64,000 nt of DNA from Dehalococcoidia bacterium (GCA_963665775.2 CAXXTF010000002.1:896001-960000); one strand, 5' to 3'. Counted from the stretch's first letter, positions 18,757 to 52,216 are shown. Notes: generated from the sequence alone by a model not told the origin. Program-made: numbers and translations.

Positions 18757-20007
18757 TTGAAAGAGAGTATCCTGGCCGCGATAGATGTCGGTAGCAGCAA
18801 GGTCTGCACACTGGTAGCGGAGGTCACTCCGGACGCGGACCTGCGCATCCTGGGGGTGGGCATCACGCCCGCGCAAGGCATCAGGAAGGGGATGGTCGAC
18901 AACATCCATGAGGCTACCGAGGCTATCGTCAACTCCGTGGAGCGGGCCGAACGTTCCAGCGGCAGCCGCATCATGTCCGCGCACGTAAGCATCGGCGGCA
19001 ACCACACTACCTCCCTGAACAACCGCGGCATCGCCACCATCCCGGGCAGACAACGACCGATCACTAATGAAGATATTGACCGGGCTATGGAAGGGGCCCA
19101 ATCGTTGAGCCTGCCCACCAATCGCGAGGTGCTGCACGCCGTTCCCCGCTTCTTCATCGTGGACGGCCAGGAACAGGTCACCGACCCCGTAGGCATGTTC
19201 GGCCAGCGGCTGGACATGGATACCCACATCGTCACCGGCTCCGTGACGGCCATTCAGAACCTCACCCAGTGCGTAGAGGGCGCCGGCGTCCAGGTGGAGG
19301 CGCTCGTCTTCGCCCCCATGGCCGCAGCGGAGGCCGTGTTAGAGGACGAGGAGAAGCAGCAGGGGGTGATCCTGGCGGACATCGGCGGCGGCACCACGGA
19401 CTTGGCGGTGTTTGTGGAGGGCGGCATCCTCCACACCTCTGTGCTGCCGGTGGGCGGCTATCATCTGACGCGCGACCTGGTCGCCGGGCTGCGCGCCCCC
19501 TTCTCCCACGTGGAGGAGGCGAAGCTGAACTTCGGCTCCGCCCTGCCCAGCCAGATCGACGCCGAGGAGACCGTGGAGCTGGAGGCGTTCGGGGGGCAAC
19601 GGGTCAAGGAGGTCTCCCGCCGACGCATCGCCGAGATACTGCAGGCGCGGGTGGAGGAGGTGCTGGAGATGATCTACATCGACGTCAAGCGGGCCGGCTT
19701 CGACGATATGATCGCCGCCGGGCTGGTCCTCAGCGGCGGCACGGCCGGCCTGCACGGCATCGCTGAGCTCGCCGAGCTCGTGCTCCGCATACCGGTGCGG
19801 ACCGGCGTGCCCCAGGGCATCCACGGCCTGGCGGATTCCCTCAACAGCCCGGCCTACGCCACCAGCGTGGGCCTGCTCCACTGGGCGATGCGCGCGAACG
19901 GGCACAACGGCCACGCCCCCCGGCGCCAGCTACGTTTGCCCGACCTACAGCCTAGGGGCCTTCTGGAAGCCATGCGCAAGTGGTTCAAAGCGCTCATACC
20001 GTCATAG
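18757..20007 (+). CDS. ftsA: Cell division protein FtsA
   Basis: IDVGSSKV, GIRKGMV, DIGGGTTD, VLSGGTA, YATSVGLL. Confidence 0.97.
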   Translation: MKESILAAIDVGSSKVCTLVAEVTPDADLRILGVGITPAQGIRKGMVDNIHEATEAIVNSVERAERSSGSRIMSAHVSIGGNHTTSLNNRGIATIPGRQRPITNEDIDRAMEGAQSLSLPTNREVLHAVPRFFIVDGQEQVTDPVGMFGQRLDMDTHIVTGSVTAIQNLTQCVEGAGVQVEALVFAPMAAAEAVLEDEEKQQGVILADIGGGTTDLAVFVEGGILHTSVLPVGGYHLTRDLVAGLRAPFSHVEEAKLNFGSALPSQIDAEETVELEAFGGQRVKEVSRRRIAEILQARVEEVLEMIYIDVKRAGFDDMIAAGLVLSGGTAGLHGIAELAELVLRIPVRTGVPQGIHGLADSLNSPAYATSVGLLHWAMRANGHNGHAPRRQLRLPDLQPRGLLEAMRKWFKALIPS

Positions 20008-20057
20008 AATATCGACAGATTCAAGCGATAGCTGAGAAAGAGAAAAGGAGGCAGGCA

Positions 20058-21128
20058 GTGGCAACAAGAGCGAACCTAGACGGCCTTCCGCCTATAACGG
20101 TGGTCGGCATAGGGGGCGGCGGTTGCAACGCCGTTAACCGCATGGTCCAGGAGCGGATCGGCGGCGTCGAGTTTGTGGGGATCAACACCGACGCCCAGGC
20201 CCTGATGCGCTGCGAGGCCGAGACTCGCATGCGCATCGGCGACCGGATCACGAGGGGGCTCGGTGTAGGGGGCGATCCCGAGCGAGGCCGGGACGCCGCC
20301 GAGGAGTCGCGCGATGAGCTGAAGGACGCCATCAAGGGCGCGGACATGGTGTTCATCACCGCCGGCATGGGCGGCGGCACCGGTACCGGCGCTGCCCCCT
20401 TGGTAGCTCAGGTGGCCAAGGACGCCGGCGCCCTCACCATCGCCATCGTCAGCAAGCCCTTCTCCTTCGAGGGCGCTCACCGGCGGCAGATCGCCGAGCA
20501 GGGGATCGCCCAGCTACGGAAGGAGGTCGATACCCTCATCGTCATCCCCAACGACCGCCTGTTGGCCATCTGCGACCAGAAGGCCACCGTGGCAGAGTCC
20601 TTCCTGATGGCCGACGACGTTTTGCGCCAGGGCATTCAGGGGATATCCGAGCTCATTACCGTGCCGGGGGAGATCAACCTGGATTTCGCCGATGTCCGCC
20701 GCATCATGTCCGAAGCCGGCCCCGCCATCATGGCCATCGGCCGCGCCGGGGGCGAAAACCGAGCCGTACAGGCGGCGCAGGCGGCCATCTCCAGCCCCCT
20801 GCTGGACGTCAGCATCCACGGCGCCAGCGGCATCCTGTTCAACGTCACCAGCTCCGGCGATATTGGGTTGCACGAACTGAACATGGCCGCCCAGGTCATC
20901 GCCGAGGTGGTCGATCCGGAGGCGGAGATCATCTTCGGTACCGCCACTGACCCCGATCTGGGCGATGAGGTGAAGATTACCCTTATCGCCGTCGGTTTCG
21001 CCCTCCCCGAGGTGTTCGAATCGCAGGCCGACGACGAGGAGTTCCACCGAATACGGGCTGACGCCCTGGATAATACCGGGGATACCGACCTGCCAACGTT
21101 TCTTCGCCGGCCCGTCTCAATACGTTAA
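20058..21128 (+). CDS. ftsZ: Cell division protein FtsZ
   Basis: GGGGCNAVNRM, NTDAQAL, GMGGGTGTG, NLDFADV, C-terminal DLPTFLRR; AAGGAGG RBS before GTG 20058. Confidence 0.98.
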   Translation: MATRANLDGLPPITVVGIGGGGCNAVNRMVQERIGGVEFVGINTDAQALMRCEAETRMRIGDRITRGLGVGGDPERGRDAAEESRDELKDAIKGADMVFITAGMGGGTGTGAAPLVAQVAKDAGALTIAIVSKPFSFEGAHRRQIAEQGIAQLRKEVDTLIVIPNDRLLAICDQKATVAESFLMADDVLRQGIQGISELITVPGEINLDFADVRRIMSEAGPAIMAIGRAGGENRAVQAAQAAISSPLLDVSIHGASGILFNVTSSGDIGLHELNMAAQVIAEVVDPEAEIIFGTATDPDLGDEVKITLIAVGFALPEVFESQADDEEFHRIRADALDNTGDTDLPTFLRRPVSIR

Positions 21129-21229
21129 CTAACGCCGGATCACGCCGCCAGCGTGGCTTCGGCGCTAGGATTCCGCAAGCGTCTAGGGAAAGGAGGTTTT
21201 ATAGAGCGGGACAAAAGTTGACCGACCGC

Positions 21230-21333
21230 TAGCACGACCGTCCCGGCATCGGTCGGGACAAGGCGCCGCAGGGCTGTTTGCCTCCCCAGACGTCCCTGCG
21301 GCGTCGCCTTTCCCCGCCACTGGCGAGATGCCA
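21230..21333. repeat. Palindromic ~100-bp element, copy 1 (related copies at 22771-22823, 29241-29335, 30092-30144)
   Basis: Arms GGCATC..AAGGCG..CCGCAGGG / CCCTGCGG..CGCCTT..GATGCC; the right arm recurs three more times. Confidence 0.7.
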
Positions 21334-21429
21334 CACGAAGCTTGGCGTCAGGAACAAAGTTGCGCTGGTGGACGTTTTGTACAAGCTAGGCTCGCAATGA
21401 ACTTTCCCAAAACTCACCAAAACGGATGA

Positions 21430-21470
21430 TTGACAATGTTACCCACGTAGAATATTAAGGTAGTACATTG
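21430..21470 (+). promoter_or_regulatory. Putative sigma70 promoter with an overlapping imperfect inverted repeat
   Basis: TTGACA 21430-21435, 17-nt spacer, TATTAA; CAATGTTACC ... GGTAGTACATTG. Confidence 0.45.
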
Positions 21471-21499
21471 CGATCTGTGAATTGCACGGAGGATACGAA

Positions 21500-22336
21500 A
21501 TGAAAATGGCTGGAGCGCCCAGAGCCCTTGTAGTGCTACTTCCGGTCCTGGCCATTGCCGGCGCGGTCCTAGCTTTCCTCTTGGTGGACAGGTCATCCGG
21601 CACTCCCGATGCGGCAGCCGTGCTTGCCCGCGCTCAAGCTGCTGAAGAGGAAGTCCTCAGCCAATTAACTGAGGGCAAAGTCCTACACGTTCAGGACAGG
21701 ATATATAAGAGGCATGGCCCGGCCGCCGAAACCATCAAGGATCGGTCGTCCGAATGGTACCTGCCGGAAACGCGTGTCACGGACACCTGGGCCGAGGTGG
21801 GGACGGGGGGCGAAATTGTGCGTATATGGGGCTTAGTTAAGGATGAGAGGACCGGCTCGCTCTTGCAGAGAACCGTAACGACCGGGAGTGAGATAGTCAT
21901 CCAAGACGTAGCCACAGGGGAAGAGAAACAAATACCGTTTGCTGTCTCTGTGCAGGATTTGTTAACTCGCCTGAATGAGGCGATAGAGGCGAGGGCGGAG
22001 CAGAGCCAGAGCGGTTCTGAGGTTAGCGGCGAGGAGATGATAGGCAACCGGACAGTGATCGTACTGGACGGGCCAGCTAGTCCATACCTATCGGCGGCGG
22101 CGGAACAGGAGAGCACTTTTGCGGGAGGCGGCTACTCCCTGCCGTATGTGGTGGACCTTGAGCCGGTAAGTATCTTCCGCCGGGTCACCGTAGACAAGGA
22201 GTCATTCGTGCCGCTACGGTGGTCCTTCGTGGTCGTCGATGCCGCTGGCAACGAGTACATCATAGAAGAGAGGCAGCGGCTTGTGTTTGAGGCGGTAGAC
22301 GTCAGCCAGGTTCCGATCATCCTTGGAGCGAGGTAG
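21500..22336 (+). CDS. Membrane-anchored exported hypothetical protein (possibly LolA-like fold)
   Basis: GGAGG RBS, N-terminal TM helix followed by VLARAQAA, beta-rich body. Confidence 0.75.
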   Translation: MKMAGAPRALVVLLPVLAIAGAVLAFLLVDRSSGTPDAAAVLARAQAAEEEVLSQLTEGKVLHVQDRIYKRHGPAAETIKDRSSEWYLPETRVTDTWAEVGTGGEIVRIWGLVKDERTGSLLQRTVTTGSEIVIQDVATGEEKQIPFAVSVQDLLTRLNEAIEARAEQSQSGSEVSGEEMIGNRTVIVLDGPASPYLSAAAEQESTFAGGGYSLPYVVDLEPVSIFRRVTVDKESFVPLRWSFVVVDAAGNEYIIEERQRLVFEAVDVSQVPIILGAR

Positions 22337-22357
22337 CTGTTATATCATTAGGGTGAA

Positions 22358-22828
22358 GTGCTCTACCTGGCTTCCGTTGCATACCTCTTTCTTGCTTACC
22401 CGGCCTACATCTTGTTCGTGGCTCTAGCGCTGCGCCGAGGCTGGTCGGCTCACCTGACCGGTGCGCATATGGTCTGGCCAATCACAATGGTTGTGTTGCC
22501 TGCTGTGCTGGCAGGAACGTTCTATCTCCTCCTAGTAAATGACGCGGCCTCTAACGAATCGCATGACGGCGGCATCCTACGCTGGATTCTTCTTGGATAC
22601 GTCTTAGGTGCATCGCTATTCATCGTCGGCTCGGCACTCGGGTTGAGAGAGCGGGACTCAGGGCTTCCCTATCGCACTCTAGGCTGGAGCATTATGGCCG
22701 GAATAACGTTGATCCCGAGCTATATCTTGATCTTGTTCGTTCCTTTGGCTGGCCTGGTCGCGTTCTGGGTGCCTCCTCGGAAGTCCCCACGGGGTCGCTT
22801 CCTCCGCCACCGGCGAGATGCCAGCTAG
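22358..22828 (+). CDS. Hypothetical integral membrane protein, copy 1
   Basis: Several TM segments; near-identical to 29703-30149. Confidence 0.7.
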   Translation: MLYLASVAYLFLAYPAYILFVALALRRGWSAHLTGAHMVWPITMVVLPAVLAGTFYLLLVNDAASNESHDGGILRWILLGYVLGASLFIVGSALGLRERDSGLPYRTLGWSIMAGITLIPSYILILFVPLAGLVAFWVPPRKSPRGRFLRHRRDAS

Positions 22829-22948
22829 GTCGCGGAGGAAACCGGCAGAGGAGGACCACGGTGACACTAACAGGTCATAGCGTTCAGTCGAGACGGGGAA
22901 AAGCATTCCGCGATTGCAAGCCGCCCATTACCTCCCAGAACAGAACTG

Positions 22949-24154
22949 TCAGCCGCCGCTCCTGACGATACCGTCCTGCTCAAGCTGCCGGATTTCGTCC
23001 TCGCCGTAACCTGCCTCTCGGAGGAGCTCCCGAGTGTGTTGGCCCAGGACCGGGGCGAAGCTCTGAAAGGTTGCAGGGGTCCGCGAGAAACGGGTGGGAG
23101 AGCCCAACTGCCGCACTCGGCCCTCCGTAGGGTGCTCCAGTTCCCAGGCCATGCCGATGTGGCGCACCTGCGGGTCTTCCAAGGCTTCGGAGACGTCATT
23201 CACCGGTGCGGCACAGGTGTCCGCCTCCCAGAGGATCTTGAGCCACTCGTCCCGATCCTTGGTGAGGAAGATCTCCTGAACCTCCCTGATCATCTGGTCA
23301 TACTCAGGGCTTGCCGCCCGCTGCAGAGAAATGAACTCCTCCCGTCCGATGGCCCGACAGAAGTTCTCAAAGAAATAAGTCTCGGCGTTGCCGGTGCTTA
23401 AGTACCTACCGTCCTTGCATCTCAAGAAACTGAGGCTGGAGCCAGCCCTCCTACCAGGGTCAGCAGCTGAAATTCCTTGCAGCTGTGCCGATAGCGTGGG
23501 AAGAGCGAAGGCCATAACGCTCCCAAGCATGGAGACATCAATATACTGTCCTTCTCCGGTCTGCTCCCGTTCCAAAAGAGCAGCAAGGATGGCGATGGCG
23601 GCGAATAGGCTGCTCGTGCAGTCAGCGCTGGGGAGGCCGTGGCTGCTAGGCTCCCCTTCGCTGTTCAGCGTGGCAGAGAGGGTGCCGGCAAAGGCGGCGA
23701 TCTGGGGATAGTGGGCTGGGAGCTTGACGTAGGGCCCGCTCTGGCCGAAGGCGGACAGGCTGCAGTAGATAATCCTCGGATTGTGTTGCCGTAAGGTCTC
23801 GTAGTCCACCCCCATCCAGTTCACCACCGCTGGCCGGTACCCCTCCAGTACCACGTCAACTGCACGGACCAGCTTGTAAAACACCTCCTGGGCCTGGGGG
23901 CGCTTCTCCGGATCCAGGAGGTTCAGGGCGATGCTTTTCTTGTTGCGTGCCAGACTGTTGTGAGCCGCCGATCTGACCTCCTCGTCAGGGGTCGGATCGG
24001 GAGGCGTGAAGATGTCACGGCCCATGCCGTAGCGTGGCAGGGGCTCCTCCACCTTGATCACCTCAACGCCCATGTCGGCCAGAATGTGGGAGGCGAAAGG
24101 CCCTTGCAGCAACCGGGACAGGTCGAGCATCCGATAGTTCCGTAGCGACGCCAT
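22949..24154 (-). CDS. Family III CoA-transferase (CaiB/BaiF)
   Basis: LDLSRLLQGP, ADMGVEVIKVE, RNKKSIALNL, NPRIIYCSLSAFGQSGPY, APVLGQHT. Confidence 0.95.
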   Translation of the reverse strand: MASLRNYRMLDLSRLLQGPFASHILADMGVEVIKVEEPLPRYGMGRDIFTPPDPTPDEEVRSAAHNSLARNKKSIALNLLDPEKRPQAQEVFYKLVRAVDVVLEGYRPAVVNWMGVDYETLRQHNPRIIYCSLSAFGQSGPYVKLPAHYPQIAAFAGTLSATLNSEGEPSSHGLPSADCTSSLFAAIAILAALLEREQTGEGQYIDVSMLGSVMAFALPTLSAQLQGISAADPGRRAGSSLSFLRCKDGRYLSTGNAETYFFENFCRAIGREEFISLQRAASPEYDQMIREVQEIFLTKDRDEWLKILWEADTCAAPVNDVSEALEDPQVRHIGMAWELEHPTEGRVRQLGSPTRFSRTPATFQSFAPVLGQHTRELLREAGYGEDEIRQLEQDGIVRSGG

Positions 24155-24400
24155 CCTTGTGTCCTCCTTGCCTTTTATCCGGAATTCCCCATATCAAGCT
24201 GTCTGGGCCGCGAGTAAGGTGCCGTCTGGACGGCGCAGCCTCTTCCAAGATTCGCCGCACGCTCCACTATCGCCGACTCGATTATCCCAGCGAACGCCCC
24301 TGTTTCAGGCCAGCCTAATGCAGCGAGCAATCGGCTGGAAGCCCGGGCGAGGATCGTAGCACTATTGCGCCTTAGTGTGACGGAACGTCTCCCAGCGAGC

Positions 24401-24727
24401 TTATTGCATCGGCGAGAATGGAGTGGGCCTCAAGATCTCGTTCGTGGTCCGTTGAATGAGGGGCCCGTCCTTTTCAGACTCGACAAATATCCGCTGTCTT
24501 TCGGGATCTGCTACGAATTCCGAGAATGCTTTCTCCCGATGCTCCATATCATCGTAGGCCAGCATGTAGATGAGGCGATCGCTCGAGTCGCCTATGACAG
24601 TCGTCCAGAATCCGACGACCGTGATTCCGTGCTGCTCGAACAGCCGAATGGTGTGATCCGCGAATCTGTCCTGCAAGGCCTGCATCTTGCCTGGATACGA
24701 CTCGTAAGTCCGCAGTTCATATATCAA
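24401..24727 (-). CDS. NIPSNAP-family protein
   Basis: IYELRTY, PGKM, RF..HT..LF..HGI, LRPTPFSP. Confidence 0.93.
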   Translation of the reverse strand: MIYELRTYESYPGKMQALQDRFADHTIRLFEQHGITVVGFWTTVIGDSSDRLIYMLAYDDMEHREKAFSEFVADPERQRIFVESEKDGPLIQRTTNEILRPTPFSPMQ

Positions 24728-24744
24728 TGTAGTCCTTTCTGAAT

Positions 24745-24895
24745 CAGCGAGCTGCTTGGCGTCCTTGGGCGTTCAAGGCTCTGAGGTACAGGTTACTCTC
24801 GTTCCACAGATTCGTCAGGTTGAACTTGCGGATCTTCCAGCCCTGCTCAGTCCGGATCAGCTTGCTGTTGTAGTACCCCACGATGGTCCACCGGC
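24745..24895 (-). pseudogene. C-terminal fragment of a SnoaL/NTF2-like protein
   Basis: Manual translation of the minus strand: RWTIVGYYNSKLIRTEQGWKIRKFNLTNLWNE...*; no N-terminus. Confidence 0.7.
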
Positions 24896-24967
24896 TGGCA
24901 CGGAGTCCCGCACTATGCGAAACGTCATGCCGCGTGACTACTCCGATGAACCAAAGAGCTCCCAGGA

Positions 24968-25078
24968 TGGTCTTTCTCCAGACGAGGCAGAATCTGCGAG
25001 ACCTCAGTCAGGCGTCGGATGCCATAGGAGACGCCGTCCTTGCGGACTACCTCGGCAGGAGGCGGGTCGTTCTCCATG
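24968..25078 (-). pseudogene. N-terminal fragment of a paralog of the 26830-27739 gene
   Basis: MENDPPPAEVVRKDGVSYGIRRLTEVSQILPRLEKD versus MENDPPPVEVVTKDGVTYRIRQLTEVSQVLPRLERD. Confidence 0.85.
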
Positions 25079-25109
25079 CGGTTATTTCTATAGACGTGAT
25101 GAACATCGG

Positions 25110-26030
25110 TCAGCCCGTGACCGGCATGTTGGCGGTCGCCCAGGCGTCGAACTTCGTGAACGGCTTTGTGGTGACGGTTTTGGCGAGGGCGATTTTGCTA
25201 GAGGCGTCGGGGCCAAAGTAGGTATGGGCCTCGAAATAGGAGAACATCTCGCGCACGGCGGGGGCCCACGGGGATTGAGCATCCCAGTCCCTGGCCGACA
25301 CCTCCTCGAAGGCGATGTCGTGGCCTTGGCGGCGGAGCACGGTGATGATGTCATCCCAGCTAAGCAGGTCTCCCGCGAGGGATAGGTGCTGCCCGGCGCC
25401 AACCTGTTCGGGCTTCTCGAACGCGCCCACGACGAGGTGCCCGAGCTCGCTGATGTCTCCCATGTGAATGCCACGAGCGTCTCGCCGCATGGGCTGGCTC
25501 CAGGTGGGTGTGCCGTCGCGACCGGGCTGCTTGGGGTACATGGGCGAAGTCAGGTTCTGGAAGTAGAAGGGCGGCTCAACGAAGGTGAAATAGTCGAAGC
25601 CCGCGGCCTCCACAGCGCCATCGACCCGGGCCTTATTGGTGAAGTGGGGCACCTGGAAATTGCCGTCAGAGATTTCCGCCACGCTCGGCAGCGTCGACCA
25701 AATGAAATGCGTCACACCCGCTGTCTTTGCGGCGTCGACCATCGCTTTGCCCTGGGCAATCTCGTCGGTGTCGGGTCCGGCGAACGAGTTGGTATTTGCA
25801 AACACGCCGTAGACCCCTTCGAACGCCTGACGTAGCGTGTCTGGCGCGTCGAAATCGGCCTCAACCACTTCGTCGGCGAGCCCGGCGGCCTTGGCGGGGT
25901 TGCGAGTCAAGGCGCGCACGACATAGCCACCGTGCGCTTGCAGGGCACGAACGACCGCTCCCCCCTGCGTCCCGGTGGCTCCGGCAACTGCGATGATTCT
26001 CTTCTTTGATTCGGACATGTCTGCCTCCAT
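25110..26030 (-). CDS. NmrA/HSCARG-family NAD(P)-binding protein (start 26030 or 26018)
   Basis: VAGATGTQGGAV, VRALTRNP, QGKAMVDAA, HFIWSTL, PHFTNK. Confidence 0.93.
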   Translation of the reverse strand: MEADMSESKKRIIAVAGATGTQGGAVVRALQAHGGYVVRALTRNPAKAAGLADEVVEADFDAPDTLRQAFEGVYGVFANTNSFAGPDTDEIAQGKAMVDAAKTAGVTHFIWSTLPSVAEISDGNFQVPHFTNKARVDGAVEAAGFDYFTFVEPPFYFQNLTSPMYPKQPGRDGTPTWSQPMRRDARGIHMGDISELGHLVVGAFEKPEQVGAGQHLSLAGDLLSWDDIITVLRRQGHDIAFEEVSARDWDAQSPWAPAVREMFSYFEAHTYFGPDASSKIALAKTVTTKPFTKFDAWATANMPVTG

Positions 26031-26107
26031 GCCGCTGATTGTACACCCGATAGATGCGGCTTTTAGGGCGTGCGTGTGTGCGTGCGGTAACGGTCCTAGG
26101 CGATCGC

Positions 26108-26575
26108 TCAGTCACCCGGATGCTGCTGTGGCCCTGCGCGACGCCCTTCTTCAGAAAAGGCGAAGGCAGTTAGTAAGGTGGCAAGGCCGAACGTGAGAAC
26201 GCCCACAGGCACGTGGATCGCTAAGAGGTCTCTATTGTCCCGTCCTGCATAACCAAGGCTGGATTGAGCGATCACGAGAGTCGCTAGTAGGACCGTGAGG
26301 ACCAGAACGCGCCGAGACCATCTAGTCCTCGTGACAAACACTAGGACGACGTGAACGATCACGAAAACGGTGAGGGCACTTGCGACCATCTCGTGGATAT
26401 CTACAGCCTCGCGATCGACAAAGAGAAAACGTCCGGCCAGTACGGCCTGCGTGAAGATCAGGAGCGTGACCAGGAGCGCCAGCCAACGATACAGGCCGGT
26501 CATCATCGGGGACGTTTCATGTGATTCCCACTCCATTACTCCAGGCAGTCGCCTGGGCTGAACTTTTGAAGTCAT
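26108..26575 (-). CDS. Four-TM membrane protein with His residues in the helices (DUF6220-like)
   Basis: QAVLAG, DIHE, QSSLG, AIHVPVG. Confidence 0.7.
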   Translation of the reverse strand: MTSKVQPRRLPGVMEWESHETSPMMTGLYRWLALLVTLLIFTQAVLAGRFLFVDREAVDIHEMVASALTVFVIVHVVLVFVTRTRWSRRVLVLTVLLATLVIAQSSLGYAGRDNRDLLAIHVPVGVLTFGLATLLTAFAFSEEGRRAGPQQHPGD

Positions 26576-26829
26576 TCTAGCATGCAGGAAACCCCTTTTG
26601 CCCTGCTACTGCAGATAGAGAGGGACCCCCTTTTCGCTTCTCTGATAATAGCCGGCAGGCTCTATACGTACGGTTAGAGCGGCCCGGTTGCCTTCCCGTC
26701 CTCGTGGCCCCTCAGCCGCGAGCGCTACCGAGTACCAGGGAACGGCACCGACAGCGACGAAAACATGGCGCTCTGCGCTCGCGATTTCCTCATGCACTAT
26801 AGTGCTTATGTAAAGTATGGGAGTGCCAG

Positions 26830-27739
26830 TCAGGCGCCGTTCTTGCCCCTGCATCGTGCCAGAACCCGCCGAACGAGGCTGGCCATGCCAACCGGGTCGC
26901 GACGGTAGGCCCTTGTCGACAACGCATAAGTAGGCTGAGACGCCACAAGGAAACCGGGGCGAATTGCCTCTGTAATCCGGGCTCCTGCTTCACTTCGCAC
27001 AGTCAACACGGTGAGGTACTTAGACAATGCGTATCGACACTTCACACTGACCAACGCCCGAGATAATCCTCGACCCCGGCACTTGGAAGGTGTGAACGAT
27101 GGACCCGAAAATGCGACACCGTATGTCGGAGAAAATGCCAGAGTGATGGACACCGACGCAAGTCGACCATCAACATACGCGCCGTACCAGATTCCTCTGT
27201 CGATTGACCGCCCCCGGGTAGATGCTCGGAGATCTCATAGACCAAATTAGGCGGTTGACCTGGCCGACATCAGTGCCGGTCAGTATCCTGGCATTGCAAT
27301 CAAAGGACAGCAGGCCTTCATCTGTCACACCATATGCTGGGGCTGGGGCACCCCGCTGCAAATAGTAGTGACGCTTAAGTATTGGCCTATGTTCCGGGCG
27401 GGCCCACAGATACACGAAGCGCGGGCCAGGGTGCAAGGACAGTATGACGCCAAGCGCCTCTGGGTCGCCCATGCAGAAGAGGTCGGCCCCGAAACCGTAA
27501 AATTCGCTCCTCAGACTGTCTGTGCCGCTCATCACCAGCGCCTCGCCGGTTTCGCCTTCCGCCACGTACCACCTCGTGTACGGGAAGCGCTCCGGCTCCA
27601 GTTGGCAGATGGCATAGACTGCGAACACTCGGTCTCGCTCCAGACGAGGCAGGACTTGCGAGACCTCGGTTAGCTGTCGGATGCGGTAGGTGACACCGTC
27701 CTTGGTCACCACTTCAACAGGAGGCGGGTCATTCTCCAT
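26830..27739 (-). pseudogene. Frameshifted GNAT-like acetyltransferase
   Basis: N-terminal ORF 27170-27739; continuation YGAYVDGRLASVS...FTPSKCRGRGLSRAL (acetyl-CoA motif RGRG) in another frame. Confidence 0.65.
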
Positions 27740-27845
27740 GCCGTCGATTCTACCACCCGGTAGCGCCTGGGCGTTTTAGGGATCGAGAGCGAGCGGGCGT
27801 CTAAGCGAGTTACAGCCACGCCTCACAGTCAGCGGTAGCGCGGCG

Positions 27846-28397
27846 TCACGCCAGCGACCCGAGCCAATCTTCCACCTCACGCGATGAGCGTAGTTCGATA
27901 ACGGTGGCGTGATGCGGGGTGCCTGCAAATGCCATTCGGGTGCTTCTCGCGTGTGCCCGCCAGCGAATGATTCCCCGAAGCAGTATCGGGTGCCTGCTGA
28001 GGAATGCTCTCCGGAACGATTCGCGATTCGTCCCCCAGAGCAGCTCCTTGCTCCAGGACCTAGTTATTGTCCGCTTGAGGAGCCGCCAGTACGCAACTCG
28101 AAAGGGAGGGCGAAGCCATACAACCGTGTCGGCCATCGGAAGAATTGAGTCTATTACATTGCGGTAGTCACCGTCGCACACCCAGCCCTCGTCGTGCTGA
28201 GCGAGTGCTTCGACGACGTTAGCCCGGAACTCTTCAGTTGGAGTCTCCTGCCAGTTTGGCCGGTGAAAGAAGGCGTCCATCTCAACCACAGGGAGGCTTA
28301 GGGATATCCCTATCTGGCGGGCGACGGTGGTCTTCCCTGACCCCGTCGCCCCGTAAACGACTATGCGCGACCGGACGCGTGCGGACTTTCCTGCCAC
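27846..28397 (-). CDS. P-loop kinase, adenylate kinase / FlaR-like
   Basis: GATGSGKTT, MDAFFHRPNW, WVCDGDY, ADTVVWL, NRESFR. Confidence 0.88.
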   Translation of the reverse strand: MAGKSARVRSRIVVYGATGSGKTTVARQIGISLSLPVVEMDAFFHRPNWQETPTEEFRANVVEALAQHDEGWVCDGDYRNVIDSILPMADTVVWLRPPFRVAYWRLLKRTITRSWSKELLWGTNRESFRRAFLSRHPILLRGIIRWRAHARSTRMAFAGTPHHATVIELRSSREVEDWLGSLA

Positions 28398-28411
28398 TGC
28401 AACGCTCAGCT

Positions 28412-28945
28412 TTATTCGGGTGCCCCATAGTCGCCCGGCTCTGGCAGTGCTGGCAGCGGGTCGGTCACGACTGTCGCTTCACCGTCGATGTACTCGACGT
28501 GGCTGCGAGATGATAACTCTATCATCTCGCAGATGAGTGCTATCCGTTCCGAGCCTTGACGGCCCTTAAGGGCTAGTTCCGCACGCTTCAGTATCTTGTC
28601 TACTGGGGTATTGGTGCCGGCGTTCACTGCCAGCGTCTCCTGGACTGTTAGTCCTTCAGCCTTGGCCTTCTCCTGCCAGTGTCCGAACTGCGTCTCCATG
28701 ATGTCGTAGCCCATCAAGGCGATACGGCGTTGAGCCTGGGTTATGGCCTCGTCTTCTTTCGCGGCCAATTCCGGCGAGTCTTGGCGCCATTGGCGTACTG
28801 TGCGTTGGGGTAATCCGGTCTCCTTCTCGATGCGTGTGCTGGAGTAGCCCATTAGTAGGAGGGCACGGACCTCGGCGCGCTTCTCGTTGTCGTAGGTCTG
28901 GACTACGCGGGTAGTCGCTCGTTCCGGGTCTTCTGAACGTCTCAT
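28412..28945 (-). CDS. Hypothetical protein with N-terminal HTH, small-terminase-like layout
   Basis: GYSSTRIEKETGLPQRTVRQW HTH, helical middle, IDGEATVV tail; extended -10 directly before the ATG. Confidence 0.6.
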   Translation of the reverse strand: MRRSEDPERATTRVVQTYDNEKRAEVRALLLMGYSSTRIEKETGLPQRTVRQWRQDSPELAAKEDEAITQAQRRIALMGYDIMETQFGHWQEKAKAEGLTVQETLAVNAGTNTPVDKILKRAELALKGRQGSERIALICEMIELSSRSHVEYIDGEATVVTDPLPALPEPGDYGAPE

Positions 28946-29000
28946 GAGCCTAGTGTAGCACGGCGGTTCTGTTAAGGTGCCTCGGGCATCTGGGATGGGG

Positions 29001-29219
29001 TCAGTTTGGCCGGCGGGTTAGCTTTTGCCACATGTAGATGATTGCGCGTACGACGAGTGTCCAGAAGAGGATAGCTATCACAAGGGAAAGGAAATCCGCC
29101 ACGTCTGTGGGTAAACCAGCATCTATGTATCCTCGAATGGGCAGAACTACACCTATTCCGATGCTCCATGCTTCTGACTTTCCAAACTTCACTAGACAGT
29201 CCTTATCGCGTCGTGTCAC
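29001..29219 (-). CDS. Small two-TM hypothetical protein or fragment
   Basis: Two hydrophobic stretches and a basic tail. Confidence 0.35.
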   Translation of the reverse strand: MTRRDKDCLVKFGKSEAWSIGIGVVLPIRGYIDAGLPTDVADFLSLVIAILFWTLVVRAIIYMWQKLTRRPN

Positions 29220-29331
29220 AAGCGTTTCACCGCCCTAGGGTAGCACGCGTAGCCCCGGCAGCGATTCTCCCCGCGTAGAGCCTCAGGCGGCGGGCAAGTC
29301 CTGCGGCGTCGCCTTTCCCCGCGACTGGCGA

Positions 29332-29607
29332 GATGGCGACACTGACGCAGTGGACGCCCTGAAGGTGCTGCGACAGGTGGCTGGTCTGCCCGTTACTCAG
29401 GAGGAGCCCTGCCCGAACATCGGCAGCGACGTGGAGGTCACGGAGGACGACACCACCACGATTAGGCTGTGGGGTGACGCCGACTGCGACGGCGACGTCG
29501 ATTCGATCGATTCCCTGAAGAAGCTCATAGCGGTTGCAGGCTTGCCGGTGATCCAAGAGGAGCCCTGTCCGGATATTGGTAGCCCTGTGCGGGTACTGGC
29601 TATTTAG
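29332..29607 (+). pseudogene. C-terminal dockerin-like (duplicated DxDxDG) fragment
   Basis: DGDTDAVDALKVLR...PCPNIG and GDADCDGDVDSIDSLK...PCPDIG; no N-terminal part or start signal. Confidence 0.75.
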
Positions 29608-29702
29608 ACCCGAATCCACTATGCCCTCCGCTCCATCCGCACACCAGGCTGTATCCGTAGAGCACACCGAATCACTACCAGCTGCTATATCATTAGGATG
29701 CA

Positions 29703-30149
29703 GTGCTCTATCTTGCTTACTTGGCCTACATCTTGTTCGTGGCTCTAGCGCTGCGCCGAGGCTGGTCGGCTCACCTGACCGGTGCGCATATGGTCTGGCC
29801 AATCGCAATGGTTGTGTTGCCTGCTGTGCTGGCAGGAACGTTCTATCTCCTCCTGGTAAATGACGCGGCCTCTAACGAATCGCATGATGGCGGCATCCTA
29901 CACTGGATTCTTCTTGGATATGTTCTAGGTGCATCGCTATTCATCGTCGGCTCGGCACTCGGGTTGAGAGAGCGGGACTCAGGGCTTCCCTATCGCACTC
30001 TAGGCTGGAGCATTATGGCCGGAATAACGTTGATCCCGAGCTATATCTTGTTCTTGTTCGTTCCTTTGGCTGGCCTGGTCGCGTTCTGGGTGCCTCCTCG
30101 GAAGTCCCCACGGGGTCGCCTCCTCCGCCATCGGCGAGATGCCAGCTAG
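29703..30149 (+). CDS. Hypothetical integral membrane protein, copy 2 (24 nt shorter near the 5' end)
   Basis: Near-identical to 22358-22828. Confidence 0.7.
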   Translation: MLYLAYLAYILFVALALRRGWSAHLTGAHMVWPIAMVVLPAVLAGTFYLLLVNDAASNESHDGGILHWILLGYVLGASLFIVGSALGLRERDSGLPYRTLGWSIMAGITLIPSYILFLFVPLAGLVAFWVPPRKSPRGRLLRHRRDAS

Positions 30150-31436
30150 GTCGCGGACGAAACCGGCAGCTCTACCGTCACACTGGTCCCCTCTTGCGGC
30201 ACGCTCTCAACGCGGATCGTCCCCCTGTGGCTATCGACGATCCACTTAGCGATACTCAGCCCCAGGCCGGCCCCACCAAGCTCCCGGGAACGGGACTTAT
30301 CCACCCGGTAGAAGCGATCGAAGATGTGGGGCAGCGCCTCCGACGGGATCCCCCGTCCCCTTTCGGATATCTGGATCTGAGCCCTGCCGGCGAGGGGCTG
30401 GAGGCGGACCTGTACGGAAGTACCGGAATCGCTGTACTTGATGGCGTTATCCAGCAGGATCACCAGAAGCTCTCGTAGACGGTCCGGGTCTCCCCGCACG
30501 TTCAGGGAGCCGTCGGCCTGGAGGTCGATATCGATCTCCCTGGGCTCGGCCAGCAGGCTCATCTGCCGCACGGCGTCGGCGGTCAGCTCGCCCAGCTCCA
30601 CATCGCTGAGCGAGAGCGCCGCTTGGCCGGCATCGGCGCGGGCCAGCGTCAGCATCTGGCCCACGATGCCGCTCAGGCGATCCGTCTCCCCCACGATATC
30701 ATCCAGGGAGGCCATATTGCTCTCCACGGTCTTGGCCGGGTGACGCTTGAGGAGCTCCGCGCTGGCCCGGATGAGGGAGAGCGGCGTACGCAGCTCGTGG
30801 GAGGCATCGGCCACGAAGGCCCGCTGACGGCCCATGGCGGTCTGGATAGGCGCCAGGGCACGACCAGCCAGAAGGAATCCGCCCGCCATCGCCAGGACGA
30901 AGGCGACGCCTCCTCCGATCCCCAGTATGAACAGCAGCCGCTCCAGGGCCTGCCTCTCTGACTCTGTGCTTCGACCGACCTCCAGGAACAGGGTCAGCCC
31001 ACGAGCCGCCGGGAGGGGCCGGACCAACACCCGCAGGTCGTCCCCATCCGAGGACTCCGTGTCCACGAAGCTGTGACCATCCGCTAAGGCCTGCGTCAAG
31101 GGCACCCGTGTCGGCCAGCCCGTACGGGTCGACATTTGGCGTGTTGGCCATGACTACGCCGTCTTCATCGACGAGGGCGTAGAAGTAGCCGCCCGCCGTG
31201 AAGGTAGGACCGATGGCGATGCTCGCCTGGCCACCGCCGCCTCCCCGCTCCAGCAAGGAGCGGGTCAGCCTCGGCACCTCCAGTCTCGACCGGGCCCGGA
31301 GGTCGTCGTTCACCTGGTCGAAGAGGGCGGTACGGGCGCTGAAGAAGACGGCGCCGCCGATGACGACCAGGATCAGAGCCAGTGCCGCAGCGAACCAGAG
31401 AGTGAGACGCCAGCGGGCTCTACTGAACACGGTCAA
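30146..31436 (-). pseudogene. Sensor histidine kinase (OmpR partner), frameshifted near 31100
   Basis: FVADASHELRTPL, LLDNAIKY, IFDRFYRVD, GAGLGLSIA in 30146-31135; first TM and sensor region in another frame from 31436. Confidence 0.88.
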
Positions 31437-31965
31437 TCCCCCAGGGCGTAGCCGACGCCCCGAACCGTCCTGATCAACTTACTGAGGTGATGGCGATCAA
31501 TCTTGCTGCGCAGATAGGAAACGTATACGTCCACCAGGTTGGAGTCTGTGGCGAAGTCGTATCCCCACAGGTGATCCAGTATCTGAGTCCGGGTCACCAC
31601 ACAACCCTCGTTCCGCATCAGGAATTCCAGCAGGCTGAACTCCTTGGGGCTGAGCTCTATGGCCCGCCCGGCCCGTTCGGCGCGCCGGCGTCCAGACCCC
31701 TGACCCGGTCCTGAACGCTGTCCAGGGCGGTGAGCAGAAGGACGGGCGTATCGATCCGGTTCCGACGAAGGCTCTGGCAGAGCTCGATCCCGTCCATCCC
31801 CGGCAAAAGGACATCCAGGACCAGTACGTCGTGCGAACCCTCCATCGCCATCACCAGCCCGTCCTCGCCGTCGTGGGCGGTATCTACGGTATGCCCCTCC
31901 TCCTCCAGTACCCGACGGATGACCTGGGCCAATCGCCGCTCATCTTCGACCATGAGAATGTACAT
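31433..31965 (-). pseudogene. OmpR-family response regulator with an internal deletion
   Basis: MYILMVEDE...DVLLPGMDG...GLDAGA jumps to AERAGRAIELSPKEFSLLEFLMRN...VRGVGY in another frame; the DDYxxKPF segment is missing. Confidence 0.9.
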
Positions 31966-32002
31966 GAGCCACCCTCCAAACCGATATGATAGACGCCCTT
32001 CA

Positions 32003-32061
32003 TTAAAGAAACGTTAAAGAACTGGGCTCGATACCTTAAGAAGCTCTAACCCCTCTCTAAC
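32003..32061. promoter_or_regulatory. OmpR-type direct-repeat boxes in a divergent promoter region
   Basis: TTAAAGAA at 32003 and 32014; CTCTAAC at 32044 and 32055 (both with 11-bp period). Confidence 0.55.
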
Positions 32062-32129
32062 GGCCGTTTAAGGCCTCCGCCATACGATGTCACCAGGAGC
32101 AAAGCCAAATTCCACGAGGAGGTGTTGTG

Positions 32130-32780
32130 ATGAAGAAGCTCCTGATCCTAGCAGCGGCGGTGGTGACCCTGAGCCTTACCGCCGTGGCCGCCACAGGGGC
32201 GGCTGCCGATGGGGAGGATGGCCCCTTCGGAAACTTTCTGACCAGGGTCGCCGACAAGCTCGGCATCAGCGAGGAGCAGCTGGAGACGGCCATCCAGGAT
32301 GCCCGGCTGGAGACGATAGACGAGGCGCTGGCCGAGGGTCGTATCACGGAGGAGCAGGCGGCCAAGATGAGGGAGCGCGTGCAGGAAGGCGCCAGCCTCT
32401 TCCCGAAGCGGCCGCACCATCGCCCTGGGGCCGGAGTGATAGTGGGCTCGGCAGCACAGGTGCTGGACATGGAGAAGGCCGGCCTGGTCGAACAGCTGAA
32501 GGACGGCAGCAGCCTGGCCGAGGTCGCCGAAGCGCAGGGGATGAGCGTGGAGGTTTTTACAGCCGCGCTGCTGAGCCAGACCGAGGCTCAGATCGACGAG
32601 ATGGTGGATGAGGGTAAGCTGACCGCCGAGAAGGCCGAGCGTATCTCCCAGACCATCGAGGAGAACATCGACCGCATCGTGAACGGCCATCACGAGCCCG
32701 GACGCCACCGCGGCCACTGGCACAGGGGCGGCGAGGGATCGCCCGCGCCATCCCAGACCTTCACCGAGGTAACCCTGTAG
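32130..32780 (+). CDS. Secreted helical-repeat hypothetical protein
   Basis: GAGGAGG RBS, signal peptide, VADKLGISEEQL, EGRITEEQA / EGKLTAEKA, SLAEVAEAQG. Confidence 0.85.
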   Translation: MKKLLILAAAVVTLSLTAVAATGAAADGEDGPFGNFLTRVADKLGISEEQLETAIQDARLETIDEALAEGRITEEQAAKMRERVQEGASLFPKRPHHRPGAGVIVGSAAQVLDMEKAGLVEQLKDGSSLAEVAEAQGMSVEVFTAALLSQTEAQIDEMVDEGKLTAEKAERISQTIEENIDRIVNGHHEPGRHRGHWHRGGEGSPAPSQTFTEVTL

Positions 32781-38446: not shown

Positions 38447-38535
38447 GCCGAAGTGGCGGAATTGGCAGACGCGGCAGACTCAAAATCTGCTGAGGGGTAA
38501 CCTTCGTGCCGGTTCGAGTCCGGCCTTCGGCACCA
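38447..38535 (+). tRNA. tRNA-Leu (CAA)
   Basis: GCCGAAG/CTTCGGC acceptor stem, anticodon loop CTCAAAA, long variable arm, GTTCGAGTC, encoded CCA. Confidence 0.97.
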
Positions 38536-38560
38536 CACAACTGCATAGCACCCAGTCCAG

Positions 38561-38634
38561 TGCGGAGTGGTGTAACGGTAGCACACGGGACTTTGGATCC
38601 CATAGTCCAGGTTCGAATCCTGGCTCCGCAGCCA
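38561..38634 (+). tRNA. tRNA-Gln (TTG)
   Basis: TGCGGAG/CTCCGCA, loop CTTTGGA, GTTCGAATCC, CCA. Confidence 0.97.
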
Positions 38635-38654
38635 GATGACTTGGGTCAACGCGC

Positions 38655-38729
38655 TCCCCGGTAGCTCAACGGTAGAGCGGGCGGCTGTTAACCGCTAGGT
38701 TGTAGGTTCGAATCCTGCCCGGGGAGCCA
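38655..38729 (+). tRNA. tRNA-Asn (GTT)
   Basis: TCCCCGG/CCGGGGA, loop CTGTTAA, GTTCGAATCC, CCA. Confidence 0.97.
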
Positions 38730-50371: not shown

Positions 50372-52183
50372 TTGGTCTCGGAGGCCCCTACCAGGATACG
50401 CCAGAACGAGGGTAAGCCGCAGCCGGCCCGACGCGTCGGCCTGGTGATGCGGGTTAGCACCGACCGCCAAGCGCTTAACGAGGAGGGCTCGCTCAAGAAC
50501 CAGCTCCAGCGCCTTCGCCAACACGTCGACTACAAACGGGCGGTCGCCGGCGAGGAATGGACAGAGGCAGAGATCTACGAACTCAGAGCCATCTCAGGCA
50601 AGGACTCCCTCCGCAGCCCTGAATTCCAGCGACTGTTCGCTGATATCCGCTCCGATCGCATCAACACCGTCCTCTGCACAGCCCTCGACCGCGTATCCCG
50701 CTCCGTGAAGGACTTCCTTCACTTCTTCGAGTTCATCAACGAGCACAACGTCGAGTTCGTCTGCCTGAAGCAGAACTACGATACGACGACCCCACAGGGC
50801 AGGCTGTTCGTAACGGTCATGATCGCCCTGGCCGAGTTCGAGCGGGAACAAACCTCCGAGCGCACCAGCGAGGCGGCGGCAGCCAGGGCGGAGCGGGGGC
50901 TGTGGAACGGTGGCCGTCTCCTTGGCTATGACCTGGACCCGGACAAGAAAGGGTCCTTGGTCCCGAACCCGGAAGAGGCGCTGCTGGTCAGTTTCGCCCT
51001 CGACGCCTACCTGGAGTGCGGCTCACTCAAGAATACCGCTCAGGCCCTCAACCGGCGTGGCTATCGGACAAAGGCGTATACGTCACGCCGCGACAGACAC
51101 CACCCAGGCAAGGAATTCACCCTTACGTCCGTCCAGTATCTCCTTAAGAACCCCGCTTACATCGGGATGAAGGAGCTTAATAAGAAACGCGGCCAAAGGG
51201 ATTCCAGCTACCGTCTGGTGGACGCCGTCTGGCCCCCCATCGTCGACGAGGCGAAATTCGAGCAGGTCCAGCGTCTTATGAGGGCCAACGGGCAATCCAA
51301 CCACAACGGCTCTCAGCCCGCCCGGCATTCATACGTCCTCAGCGGCCTCCTTCACTGCGGCCGTTGTCACTCCTTGATGGAGGGCAGGTGCGGGACCGGG
51401 CGGCTCGGCTCTCGATATTACTACTACGTGTGTCGCAATAGAGACTGCGGCCTGCGTGTCAGCGCTGACGAGATCGAGGGGGCAACCCTTGGCCGCATTC
51501 GCGAGCTGGCGAGCTCGCCGGACATCCTTGAGCGTCTTGTTAACGAGACCAACGGCAGGATTGCCGGCGAACGGCCCAAGCTGATTGCTCGGCGGGATGA
51601 CCTCGGGAAGAAGCTGCACGATCTCAAGAATCAGGCAGACAAGGTCCTCGTTGAATGGTCGGCTCTCGAAGAGCAGGCGGGAAGAGCCTTCCTCACAGAG
51701 AAGTTGGGGAATTTAGCTCCGCGCCGAAGCGACCTGGAGCGCGGCATCGCCGAAGTCGAAGAAGCCCTGGCGGCTATGGACAGGGAACGGGTGACGGTGG
51801 AGGTGGTTCGGACCGCCCTCGGCGACTTCGGCCGGCTCTACGCCTGCCTCACCCCGTTTGAGCGAAAGGAGCTAATCAAGCTGATACTTCGCCGGGCGGA
51901 AGTCGGCGTCCGCCAGATCGCGCTGGAGCTGTATCCAATTCCATCAACGGAGATGGCGGCGCAGGGCCGTGTACGCTTTGAGGCACCAAACTGGCTCCCC
52001 GAGTCGCTGCCGCAAAGCGTACTGCGCGACGCCTTTGCTATCCGCCTTCCCAGTATAACTGGCTGGGTTCGAAGGGCACGACGCCGATTCGATAGAGCCT
52101 CCAGATCCCAACGGCGTAATGACCCCAGCCTCTGTAGGGCATCTTCTCCTCCTAGGATTACTGTGCCTAAGTTGGGGGGTTAA
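50372..52183 (+). CDS. Large serine recombinase (integrase), complete
   Basis: MRVST catalytic motif, ISGK..R.PEF, LDRVSRS, AEFERE, recombinase domain (LLKNPAYIG), Zn ribbon CGRC...YYVC...C, coiled coil. Confidence 0.96.
   Translation: MVSEAPTRIRQNEGKPQPARRVGLVMRVSTDRQALNEEGSLKNQLQRLRQHVDYKRAVAGEEWTEAEIYELRAISGKDSLRSPEFQRLFADIRSDRINTVLCTALDRVSRSVKDFLHFFEFINEHNVEFVCLKQNYDTTTPQGRLFVTVMIALAEFEREQTSERTSEAAAARAERGLWNGGRLLGYDLDPDKKGSLVPNPEEALLVSFALDAYLECGSLKNTAQALNRRGYRTKAYTSRRDRHHPGKEFTLTSVQYLLKNPAYIGMKELNKKRGQRDSSYRLVDAVWPPIVDEAKFEQVQRLMRANGQSNHNGSQPARHSYVLSGLLHCGRCHSLMEGRCGTGRLGSRYYYYVCRNRDCGLRVSADEIEGATLGRIRELASSPDILERLVNETNGRIAGERPKLIARRDDLGKKLHDLKNQADKVLVEWSALEEQAGRAFLTEKLGNLAPRRSDLERGIAEVEEALAAMDRERVTVEVVRTALGDFGRLYACLTPFERKELIKLILRRAEVGVRQIALELYPIPSTEMAAQGRVRFEAPNWLPESLPQSVLRDAFAIRLPSITGWVRRARRRFDRASRSQRRNDPSLCRASSPPRITVPKLGG
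51989..52001 (-). other. att-like core matching the tRNA-Asn 3' end and flank
   Basis: AACTGGCTCCCCG is the reverse complement of 38720-38732. Confidence 0.75.
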
Positions 52184-52216
52184 GGGTTGCGGATTCAGCA
52201 AGGCGGAGGCGGACGG

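Follow-up and report, generated by a model that had tools for sequence, protein, structure and literature searches.

A half-hairpin motif in four copies at one locus behind ftsZ in a Dehalococcoidia bacterium

The window analysed here is a 64,000-nucleotide stretch of DNA from a Dehalococcoidia bacterium (GCA_963665775.2, CAXXTF010000002.1:896001-960000). Behind the cell-division gene ftsZ, a short motif is repeated four times. All copies lie on the plus strand, and positions given here are counted from the first letter of the window. An earlier reading of the same DNA, referred to as the original prediction, had located the copies and their layout correctly. The motif is followed by an open reading frame (ORF) of secreted type and a membrane ORF that ends in the motif. 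About 6.45 kb of minus-strand genes come next, and the motif then recurs before a truncated dockerin and the same membrane ORF. The copies, the genes that end in them, and the conserved element behind ftsZ are as follows.

4.2-21.1 kb: the dcw cluster, complete from mraZ to ftsZ, upstream of the conserved element.
19980-21128, plus strand: ftsZ (Pfam Tubulin and FtsZ_C), the last gene of the dcw cluster.
21184-21315, plus strand: the conserved ftsZ-3' element (model R1, 134 nucleotides), matched at 127.1 bits and E 3.6e-35.
21262-21305, plus strand: hairpin P2 of that element, 44 nucleotides with 12 + 6 pairs, a 6-nucleotide C-rich apical loop (21281-21286), and a short T-run after it.
21292-21333, plus strand: copy 1 (c1, type I, native), the outer 3' arm of P2 and 28 nucleotides of lineage-specific flank.
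22335-22848, plus strand: duplication block A, containing memA with copy 2 and a 23-nucleotide relic of a kinase 3' end.
22358-22828, plus strand: memA, ending in copy 2.
22783-22823, plus strand: copy 2 (c2, type II), coding for the last 14 residues of memA.
29298-29335, plus strand: copy 3 (c3, type I), a 36-nucleotide copy of c1 with one mismatch and one indel.
29332-29607, plus strand: a 5'-truncated dockerin domain whose first repeat lacks its start, in a frame open from 29239 (29239-29607).
29680-30169, plus strand: duplication block B, the source block, containing memB with copy 4 and the last seven codons of the kinase, whose gene has an intact end.
29703-30149, plus strand: memB, ending in copy 4.
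30104-30144, plus strand: copy 4 (c4, type II), the tail of memB, whose stop overlaps the kinase stop on the other strand.

The motif repeat is genuine and stands far above chance. Run against the 2.35-Mb genome, a profile built from all copies returned them at 46.3 to 49.7 bits (E 6.5e-13 to 7.9e-12), and the next best place in the genome reached only 8.8 bits (E 4.9). The 17-nucleotide core of the motif occurs six times in the genome at up to two mismatches, and four of these occurrences are the copies themselves, all of which fall within 9 kb. The copies can be sorted into two types by core identity. The type I pair (c1 and c3) is identical at 34 of 35 positions and the type II pair (c2 and c4) at 32 of 34. 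Identity between types is 28 of 35 for c1 and c2, 27 of 35 for c2 and c3, 26 of 35 for c1 and c4, and 25 of 35 for c3 and c4.

No motif copy beyond chance was found outside the locus in the genome, in 185,579 species-representative genomes (596 Gb), or in viral contigs. A degenerate four-copy pattern gave 58 single matches in the species genomes and none in the viral contigs. The 58 matches come from unrelated G+C-rich phyla, are confined to the part that the pattern enforces, and score like chance, at 9.4 to 23.7 bits. The original prediction had proposed a miniature inverted-repeat transposable element (MITE) or an integron-like cassette boundary. Four same-strand copies at gene boundaries would fit such a dispersed mobile or recombination family, and short repeated sites at the ends of small gene units are shared with integrons and MITEs. 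However, because the four copies occur at one locus only and matches elsewhere are at chance level, the motif is neither a MITE nor a dispersed cassette-boundary family. Unlike MITEs, it has no dispersed copies, terminal inverted repeats, or target-site duplications. Unlike integrons, the locus lacks IntI, attI, and any imperfect palindrome of the attC type, and its units carry their own promoter or two genes. No recombinase lies between 21.3 and 30.1 kb, and one copy sits in a vertically conserved element. A dispersed family is given almost no credence. The original prediction had set two things together against its own idea: occurrence at this locus only, which is what the searches show, and a single old tandem duplication, which is insufficient, as at least three events are needed.

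Copy 1 is the hub of the four. As a single query it finds c3 (E 5.4e-4), c2 (E 0.0023), and c4 (E 0.0073). In blastn alignments, c1 matches c3 at 97.2% over 36 nucleotides (21295-21330 to 29300-29335), c2 at 82% over 55 nucleotides (21279-21333), and c4 at 80% over 55 nucleotides. The similarity of the type II copies to c1 begins at 21279, the apical-loop edge of P2. A model of c2 and c4, searched genome-wide, matched c1 at E 1.3e-5 over 21274-21333 and c3 only at E 2.4.

Behind ftsZ, the intergenic DNA (21179-21312) is conserved and aligns with nine relatives, each time downstream of their own ftsZ. R1, a covariance model of this ftsZ-3' element, has a sole strong match in the genome, at 21184-21315; the element is single-copy. 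Of 40 other genomes in the family, 30 carry it, as do 11 of the 12 high-quality ones when this genome is included and 1 of 150 genomes sampled elsewhere in the class. Its position, at all 30 of 30 loci, is 22 to 215 nucleotides 3' of ftsZ on the same strand. The element is composed (5' to 3') of a Shine-Dalgarno-like purine block about 90 nucleotides upstream of P2, an invariant block, a variable hairpin (P1), and the conserved hairpin P2. The invariant block contains the TAGCACG sequence noted in the original prediction. The arms of P1 are seen in the alignment to vary together between genera. RNAalifold gives P2 18 pairs. Across 31 sequences, 96.2% of the P2 cells are paired and 10 of the 18 pairs have changed on both sides; none of 500 shuffles reaches the observed pairing, and slid controls reach at most 51.5%. 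Rfam 15 at the gathering score identified only three tRNAs in the window and no match to the ftsZ-3' element, and at E<=1 there was no match in 21100-21500. In 29150-30250, the sole Rfam match was at chance level. No conserved element of this kind behind ftsZ was found in the literature at the level of listed titles.

The motif begins in the 3' side of the inner stem of P2, takes in the outer 3' arm (21294-21305), and then continues through 28 nucleotides of flank that are conserved in no relative. Copy 1 is the native end of the conserved hairpin. It had been read as the right arm of a hairpin of about 90 bp; the arm is confirmed, and the hairpin itself is shorter, at 44 nucleotides. A palindromic arm is not a feature of the motif as had been supposed, for only c1 lies in a hairpin. 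Its fold z is -3.2, against -0.2 for c2, +0.95 for c3, and +1.4 for c4, and no inverted partner was found for c2, c3, or c4. Since types I and II share the lineage-specific flank, all copies derive from the c1 region of this lineage. The model of c2 and c4 matched the hairpins and flanks of the relatives at E 0.2 or worse, and no foreign donor was identified. A second copy of the P2 3' half at two or fewer mismatches was not found in 42 relatives, nor was one present in the four relatives with about 16 kb of downstream sequence. An origin of c1 as a relic of the 3' end of the membrane gene was considered and ruled out, as the left half of c1 is within the family-conserved element.

Hairpin P2 looks like an intrinsic terminator. 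As in Rho-independent terminators, it has a G+C-rich stem of 18 well-supported pairs and a short T-run, and it stands at the end of the dcw operon, behind ftsZ in all 30 loci. Unlike in such terminators, the T-run is weak, and the C-rich loop and an upstream part of 90 nucleotides are conserved across genera, which a plain terminator does not need. The T-run is below the threshold of a consensus terminator scan, which requires 5 T in 8 and flags none of the four copies. The C-rich loop is anti-Shine-Dalgarno-like, and the purine block is Shine-Dalgarno-like.

The copies could also have been retained as functional terminators or 3'-end modules of ftsZ, memA, the minus-strand block, and memB with the kinase. 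The conserved, covarying c1 hairpin with its T-run is consistent with this, and c2 is able to form a 9-pair stem across its stop codon. However, c2, c3, and c4 lack the 5' arm and fold no better than shuffles, c2 and c4 are coding, and c3 precedes a gene fragment and is not behind a gene. Retention of the copies for such a function is improbable.

The type II copies each form the end of a membrane gene. The memA and memB genes are two copies of an ORF of about 150 amino acids. By blastn, 22385-22848 corresponds to 29706-30169 with 97.0% identity over 464 nucleotides; the 5' part is more diverged and contains a 24-nucleotide indel. The block, which makes up repeat families D1 and D6, is approximately 490 to 514 nucleotides in size. 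The 97% region spans from about 450 nucleotides upstream of the motif to 23 nucleotides past it. This 23-nucleotide extension is identical at 22 of 23 positions (z 10.7). In block B, it is the last seven codons of a convergent histidine kinase; in block A, it is a non-coding relic, after which the flank of a CoA-transferase gene begins. Since the 23 nucleotides are coding in B only, B is the source and A is the copy. The original prediction had both type II copies abutting the kinase stop. Copy 4 does overlap that stop, whereas c2 has the relic and its next gene is the CoA-transferase. The motif pair c2 and c4 is explained by an ordinary segmental duplication.

The two membrane genes differ at 13 of 444 aligned positions, six synonymous and seven non-synonymous, which is too few to judge selection. 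Two proteins on short contigs of other assemblies (P0027 and P0028) are mosaics of memA and memB, with the N-terminus of one and body or tail residues of the other. These mosaics suggest either gene conversion between memA and memB or chimeric assembly of short reads. A word-indexed search with the membrane protein returned itself only. An exhaustive HMMER search returned 12 proteins at E<=0.001, including seven homologues of 108 to 156 amino acids and four long proteins matched over short stretches only. One homologue (P0029) has 53% identity. A single-protein query for the membrane gene found it in none of 40 relatives; a profile found it in 1 of 400 further genomes from the class, where its neighbours are unrelated. 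A metagenome scan added six distant homologues, none with the motif (best nhmmer E 0.37). The membrane protein represents a genuine but rare family. The conserved core of the family stops immediately ahead of the motif, and the tails vary among the homologues; the motif is therefore not a family feature, and the frame simply runs into it here.

Copy 3 is of a different kind. Similarity to c1 stops at 29335, and homology to the many dockerin paralogues of the genome begins at 29332, an overlap of 4 nucleotides. The dockerin frame lacks a signal peptide and any start codon before 29350. Its homologues are proteins of 215 to 1437 amino acids, 11 of 25 with PF00404 (Dockerin_1), and align only from about residue 32, within the first calcium-binding repeat. 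The flanks of c3 and c1 are unrelated on both sides in local alignments against shuffles (downstream z -1.0, upstream z 1.4). The TAGCACG and other sequence that c1 and c3 had been said to share upstream is therefore not above chance. The upstream regions of c1 and c3 are likewise unrelated to the membrane gene (z 1.6 and -1.2). A degenerate full ftsZ-3' element at c3 was considered and rejected, as R1 has no match there at E<=10 with filters off. Copy 3 marks an illegitimate junction with about 4 nucleotides of overlap and not the start of a cassette. The divergence of c1 and c3 (1 in 36 plus one indel) is similar to that of the membrane-gene pair (13 in 444), at about 3%.

The DNA from c1 to c4, approximately 8.9 kb, is low in G+C, accessory, decaying, and lineage-specific. 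Its G+C fraction is 0.55-0.63, compared with 0.62-0.69 for the dcw genes, 0.64-0.68 for the kinase, and 0.63 for the genome. Its remaining features, and the genes next to c4, are as follows.

21500-22336, plus strand: sec284, an orphan ORF with an N-terminal hydrophobic signal or anchor, starting at ATG 21500 with a GGAGGA ribosome-binding site before it.
22849-29297, minus strand: the accessory block of 6.45 kb, with nine ORFs, four of which have a clear Pfam family.
24969-25090, minus strand: an orphan 5' fragment with the first 36 codons of the family of the gene at 27170-27739 (repeat family D2; tblastn 80.6% over 36 amino acids).
30146-32013, minus strand: a two-component system adjoining c4, with both genes frameshifted.
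30146-31135, minus strand: HisKA and HATPase_c domains of the kinase, with its N-terminal membrane part in another frame at 30699-31478.
31660-32013, minus strand: receiver domain of an OmpR-type regulator, with its DNA-binding domain in another frame at 31436-31939.

The motif coincides with breakpoints, as had been proposed. Copy 1 is the end of the ftsZ-3' element and the start of the low-G+C DNA, c3 is the start of the truncated dockerin, and c4 is where the accessory DNA ends, at the stop of the kinase. The sec284 ORF has no Pfam, NCBIfam, or PHROG family. Its sole homologue is a protein of 278 amino acids that is 98% identical, and a metagenome scan with sec284 found no relative. The idea that sec284 and the dockerin fragment are the two halves of a single gene was considered and set aside. 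Atlas look-alikes score at most 0.90 and have no common family. The accessory block encodes a CoA-transferase III, a NIPSNAP protein, an NmrA-like protein, a DUF6220-like membrane protein, a P-loop kinase-like protein, and a helix-turn-helix protein, as well as two members of a multi-copy family (27170-27739 and 26830-27153). The family of this last gene pair has no Pfam match, and tblastn locates it at no fewer than 13 genomic sites, among them four in tandem; its loci include C1:844.9-845.9 kb, C1:282.9-283.8 kb, and C2:986-990 kb. Two paralogous loci of that family are less than 2 kb from tyrosine-recombinase genes. The frame splits of the two-component system are located near 31100-31150 in the kinase and near 31660-31940 in the regulator.

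Gene order behind ftsZ differs from that of the relatives. When 22 proteins of the window were searched for within 16 kb of ftsZ in the loci of 12 relatives, only FtsA and FtsZ were found. In 9 of 10 relatives' loci, the genes that come after ftsZ within 2 to 5 kb correspond to ones lying 358 kb further on this contig in the same orientation (C2:1,275.5-1,279.7 kb). This displacement indicates that the DNA behind the element is lineage-specific and that a large synteny break directly follows the element.

Scans with Pfam, NCBIfam, and PHROG identified no integrase or other recombinase in 21.3-30.1 kb. There is no PF00589 match at E<=1 within C2:917-926 kb, and the nearest among the matches listed is at C2:1,067,819. 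Genome-wide, 22 PF00589 matches (tyrosine recombinases) are over the cut-off. Several of these are near-identical pairs, such as two frames of 495 amino acids, which suggests active or recent mobile elements elsewhere in the genome. A large serine recombinase with Resolvase, Recombinase, and zinc-ribbon domains is present at 50372-52183, 20 kb away, with a ParB-like gene next to it (50372-53665). It is downstream of a cluster of three tRNAs (Leu, Gln, and Asn; 38447-38729), and the serine-recombinase region is possibly an integrated element that has nothing to do with the motif.

Nearly the whole stretch is present in six public sequencing runs. All four motif junctions, each together with its unique flanks, are covered by Logan contigs from three runs of two studies with 0 to 1 differences, although these runs may include the source sample and are perhaps not independent. 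Contigs of the three runs also match 30090-32500 with 0 to 2 differences and no gaps, and the frameshifts agree. An assembly artefact would be suggested by the short-read contigs that break inside both membrane-gene copies, as they do in repeats, and by the mosaic protein variants in other assemblies. The regions 22432-22768 and 29753-30089 are outside the long pieces listed, which is expected of repeats and proves nothing. Against an artefact stand the covered junctions and the differences between the two membrane genes (13 of 444 positions and the 24-nucleotide indel), and an artefactual layout is very unlikely. One run (X1) contains a related strain, with pieces that are 94 to 98% identical at a depth of 3 to 5 and that include parts of sec284 and of the 6.45-kb block.

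The reading favoured here, with middling confidence, is that the motif is not an element in its own right and that its copies are scars left by insertion and duplication events at a single hot spot. In the older event, foreign DNA would have been placed behind P2, leaving a partial duplicate of the 3' half of the hairpin at the far end. This far-end type II copy, about 80% similar and starting at the apical loop, would be older than c3. The frame of an accessory membrane gene would have run into it, so that the copy became the last 14 or so codons and ended on the kinase stop codon. The membrane gene, the type II copy, and the last seven kinase codons on the kinase side (B) were duplicated, presumably later, onto the ftsZ side (A). 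An equally young event, at about 3% divergence, would have joined a 36-nucleotide piece of c1 to a 5'-truncated dockerin, producing c3. The second unit would thus have arisen through one or two recent events.

The process envisaged as most likely is non-programmed: partial duplication and illegitimate or homologous recombination (Campbell-type or unequal), without a dedicated recombinase. It would have acted at an intergenic hot spot that carries a hairpin and lies among accessory DNA in decay. Non-programmed rearrangement is favoured because the region contains no recombinase, the identity of c2 and c4 continues beyond the motif, c3 cuts a domain, and the arrangement does not recur in the 42 relatives. 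The data establish what the copies are, that they are unique, how far they extend, that c1 is native, that block A was copied from B, and that the region is decaying; the order of the events and the absence of a site-specific enzyme are what we infer from these observations. The locus shares with segmental duplications and gene-remnant regions a 97% block with one boundary inside a neighbouring gene, orphan fragments, truncated and frameshifted genes, and a junction with a 4-nucleotide overlap. Unlike in a segmental duplication, the same piece of hairpin is reused at three junctions, more than one duplication predicts.

Several observations weigh against this reading. Direct repeats of 55 nucleotides enclose low-G+C foreign DNA, and one of these repeats belongs to a conserved hairpin as its 3' part. 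Such bracketing is the classic footprint of site-specific integration, and random rearrangement requires more steps to produce it. On the right, similarity breaks off at a common position in all four copies (to within 3 nucleotides), the similarity of type II to c1 starts at the apical loop, and the types alternate I, II, I, II; an array of attachment (att) sites predicts a common right edge, a start at the loop, and alternating types. The hexamer at the left edge of c3 matches type II and not c1, giving c3 a hybrid look. The two units differ wholly between the type I motif and the membrane gene, so that duplication of a unit would need a replacement or two complementary deletions. One low-depth X1 contig matches only from 30109, inside c4, into the 3' end of the kinase and is unrelated before that point. 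The last letters of this contig contain a 10-mer that is the reverse complement of sequence in the invariant block of the ftsZ-3' element, which may be chance.

A local att array is a possible but less probable account. In this array, the sequence from the apical loop of P2 to about 55 nucleotides downstream would be the attachment site of tandem elements without an integrase, served by a recombinase in trans. There would be two or three elements: sec284 with the membrane gene (1.5 kb), the 6.45-kb block, and the dockerin fragment with the membrane gene (0.8 kb). Copies 1 and 4 would represent attL and attR, with c2 and c3 as hybrid sites, and the membrane gene would be conserved backbone by the right end of two related elements. 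The direct repeats that bracket compositionally distinct accessory DNA, the common right boundary, the alternating types, and the hybrid-looking c3 are more simply accounted for in this way. The similarity also begins at the loop of a hairpin that is symmetric, as is known from integrases targeting tRNA loops. The genome could supply an enzyme from its 22 tyrosine recombinases or the large serine recombinase 20 kb away. However, the 8.9 kb contain no recombinase gene or remnant, and the identity of c2 and c4 runs 23 nucleotides past the motif and about 450 nucleotides upstream, like a plain segmental duplication. Copies 1 and 4 are only 80% alike, the c3 'cassette' starts in the middle of a dockerin repeat with no start codon, and neither a motif elsewhere in the genome nor a second hairpin 3' half in the relatives was found. 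No joint linking two motif copies was found among the 15 contig joints listed of 58. The listed joints have sides of 21 to 37 nucleotides and lie in conserved genes, and for these reasons are probably from other organisms.

An extension of the att array is a small cassette system without an integrase that docks at the ftsZ-3' hairpin, in which units of a variable secreted-protein gene and a conserved membrane-protein gene, the latter with a frame crossing the site, are inserted and swapped at the loop by a recombinase encoded elsewhere in the genome. If true, this would be an integron-like function with an operon terminator as the attachment site and a 55-nucleotide half-hairpin as the cassette boundary, and it is regarded as quite improbable.

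Genomic islands are known at the 3' part of tRNA and tmRNA genes, flanked by direct repeats of that part and sometimes in tandem arrays; those at ssrA in Dehalococcoides are an example. As in these islands, direct repeats of the 3' part of a stem-loop surround low-G+C DNA, the copies are on the same strand, and they start at the loop. Unlike in these islands, the target is a terminator-like hairpin behind ftsZ, the island has no integrase, the repeats are 80% and not nearly 100% identical, two of them are within a 0.5-kb segmental duplication, and there is no recurrence in relatives. Only two of the four signs of an integrase-mediated island are found at this locus. Direct repeats around compositionally distinct DNA are present (c1 and c4, 80% over 55 nucleotides; G+C 0.55-0.63 inside and 0.64-0.69 outside); an integrase at one end is absent, and use of the same site was not found in 42 relatives, all from other genera (four with about 16 kb of flank). 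The locus may be a decayed island or a duplication scar at a structured intergenic site. Either way, it is a new instance of a known phenomenon and does not represent a novel mobile element.

The outcome is chiefly a correction. The supposed new recombination site or MITE is reduced to rearrangement scars at one locus, and the supposed palindromic arm belongs to an element of the host. For this lineage, the region behind the dcw/ftsZ operon is a hot spot in which accessory genes have been inserted, have been duplicated, and are decaying. The reuse of a half-hairpin at three junctions offers a tractable case for the question of whether terminator hairpins attract insertions. The more interesting by-product is the ftsZ-3' element, which has no Rfam match and is found in most genomes of one family behind a key cell-division gene. 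This element is a candidate for a new 3' RNA element with a regulatory or stabilising role, or for a terminator of the dcw operon.

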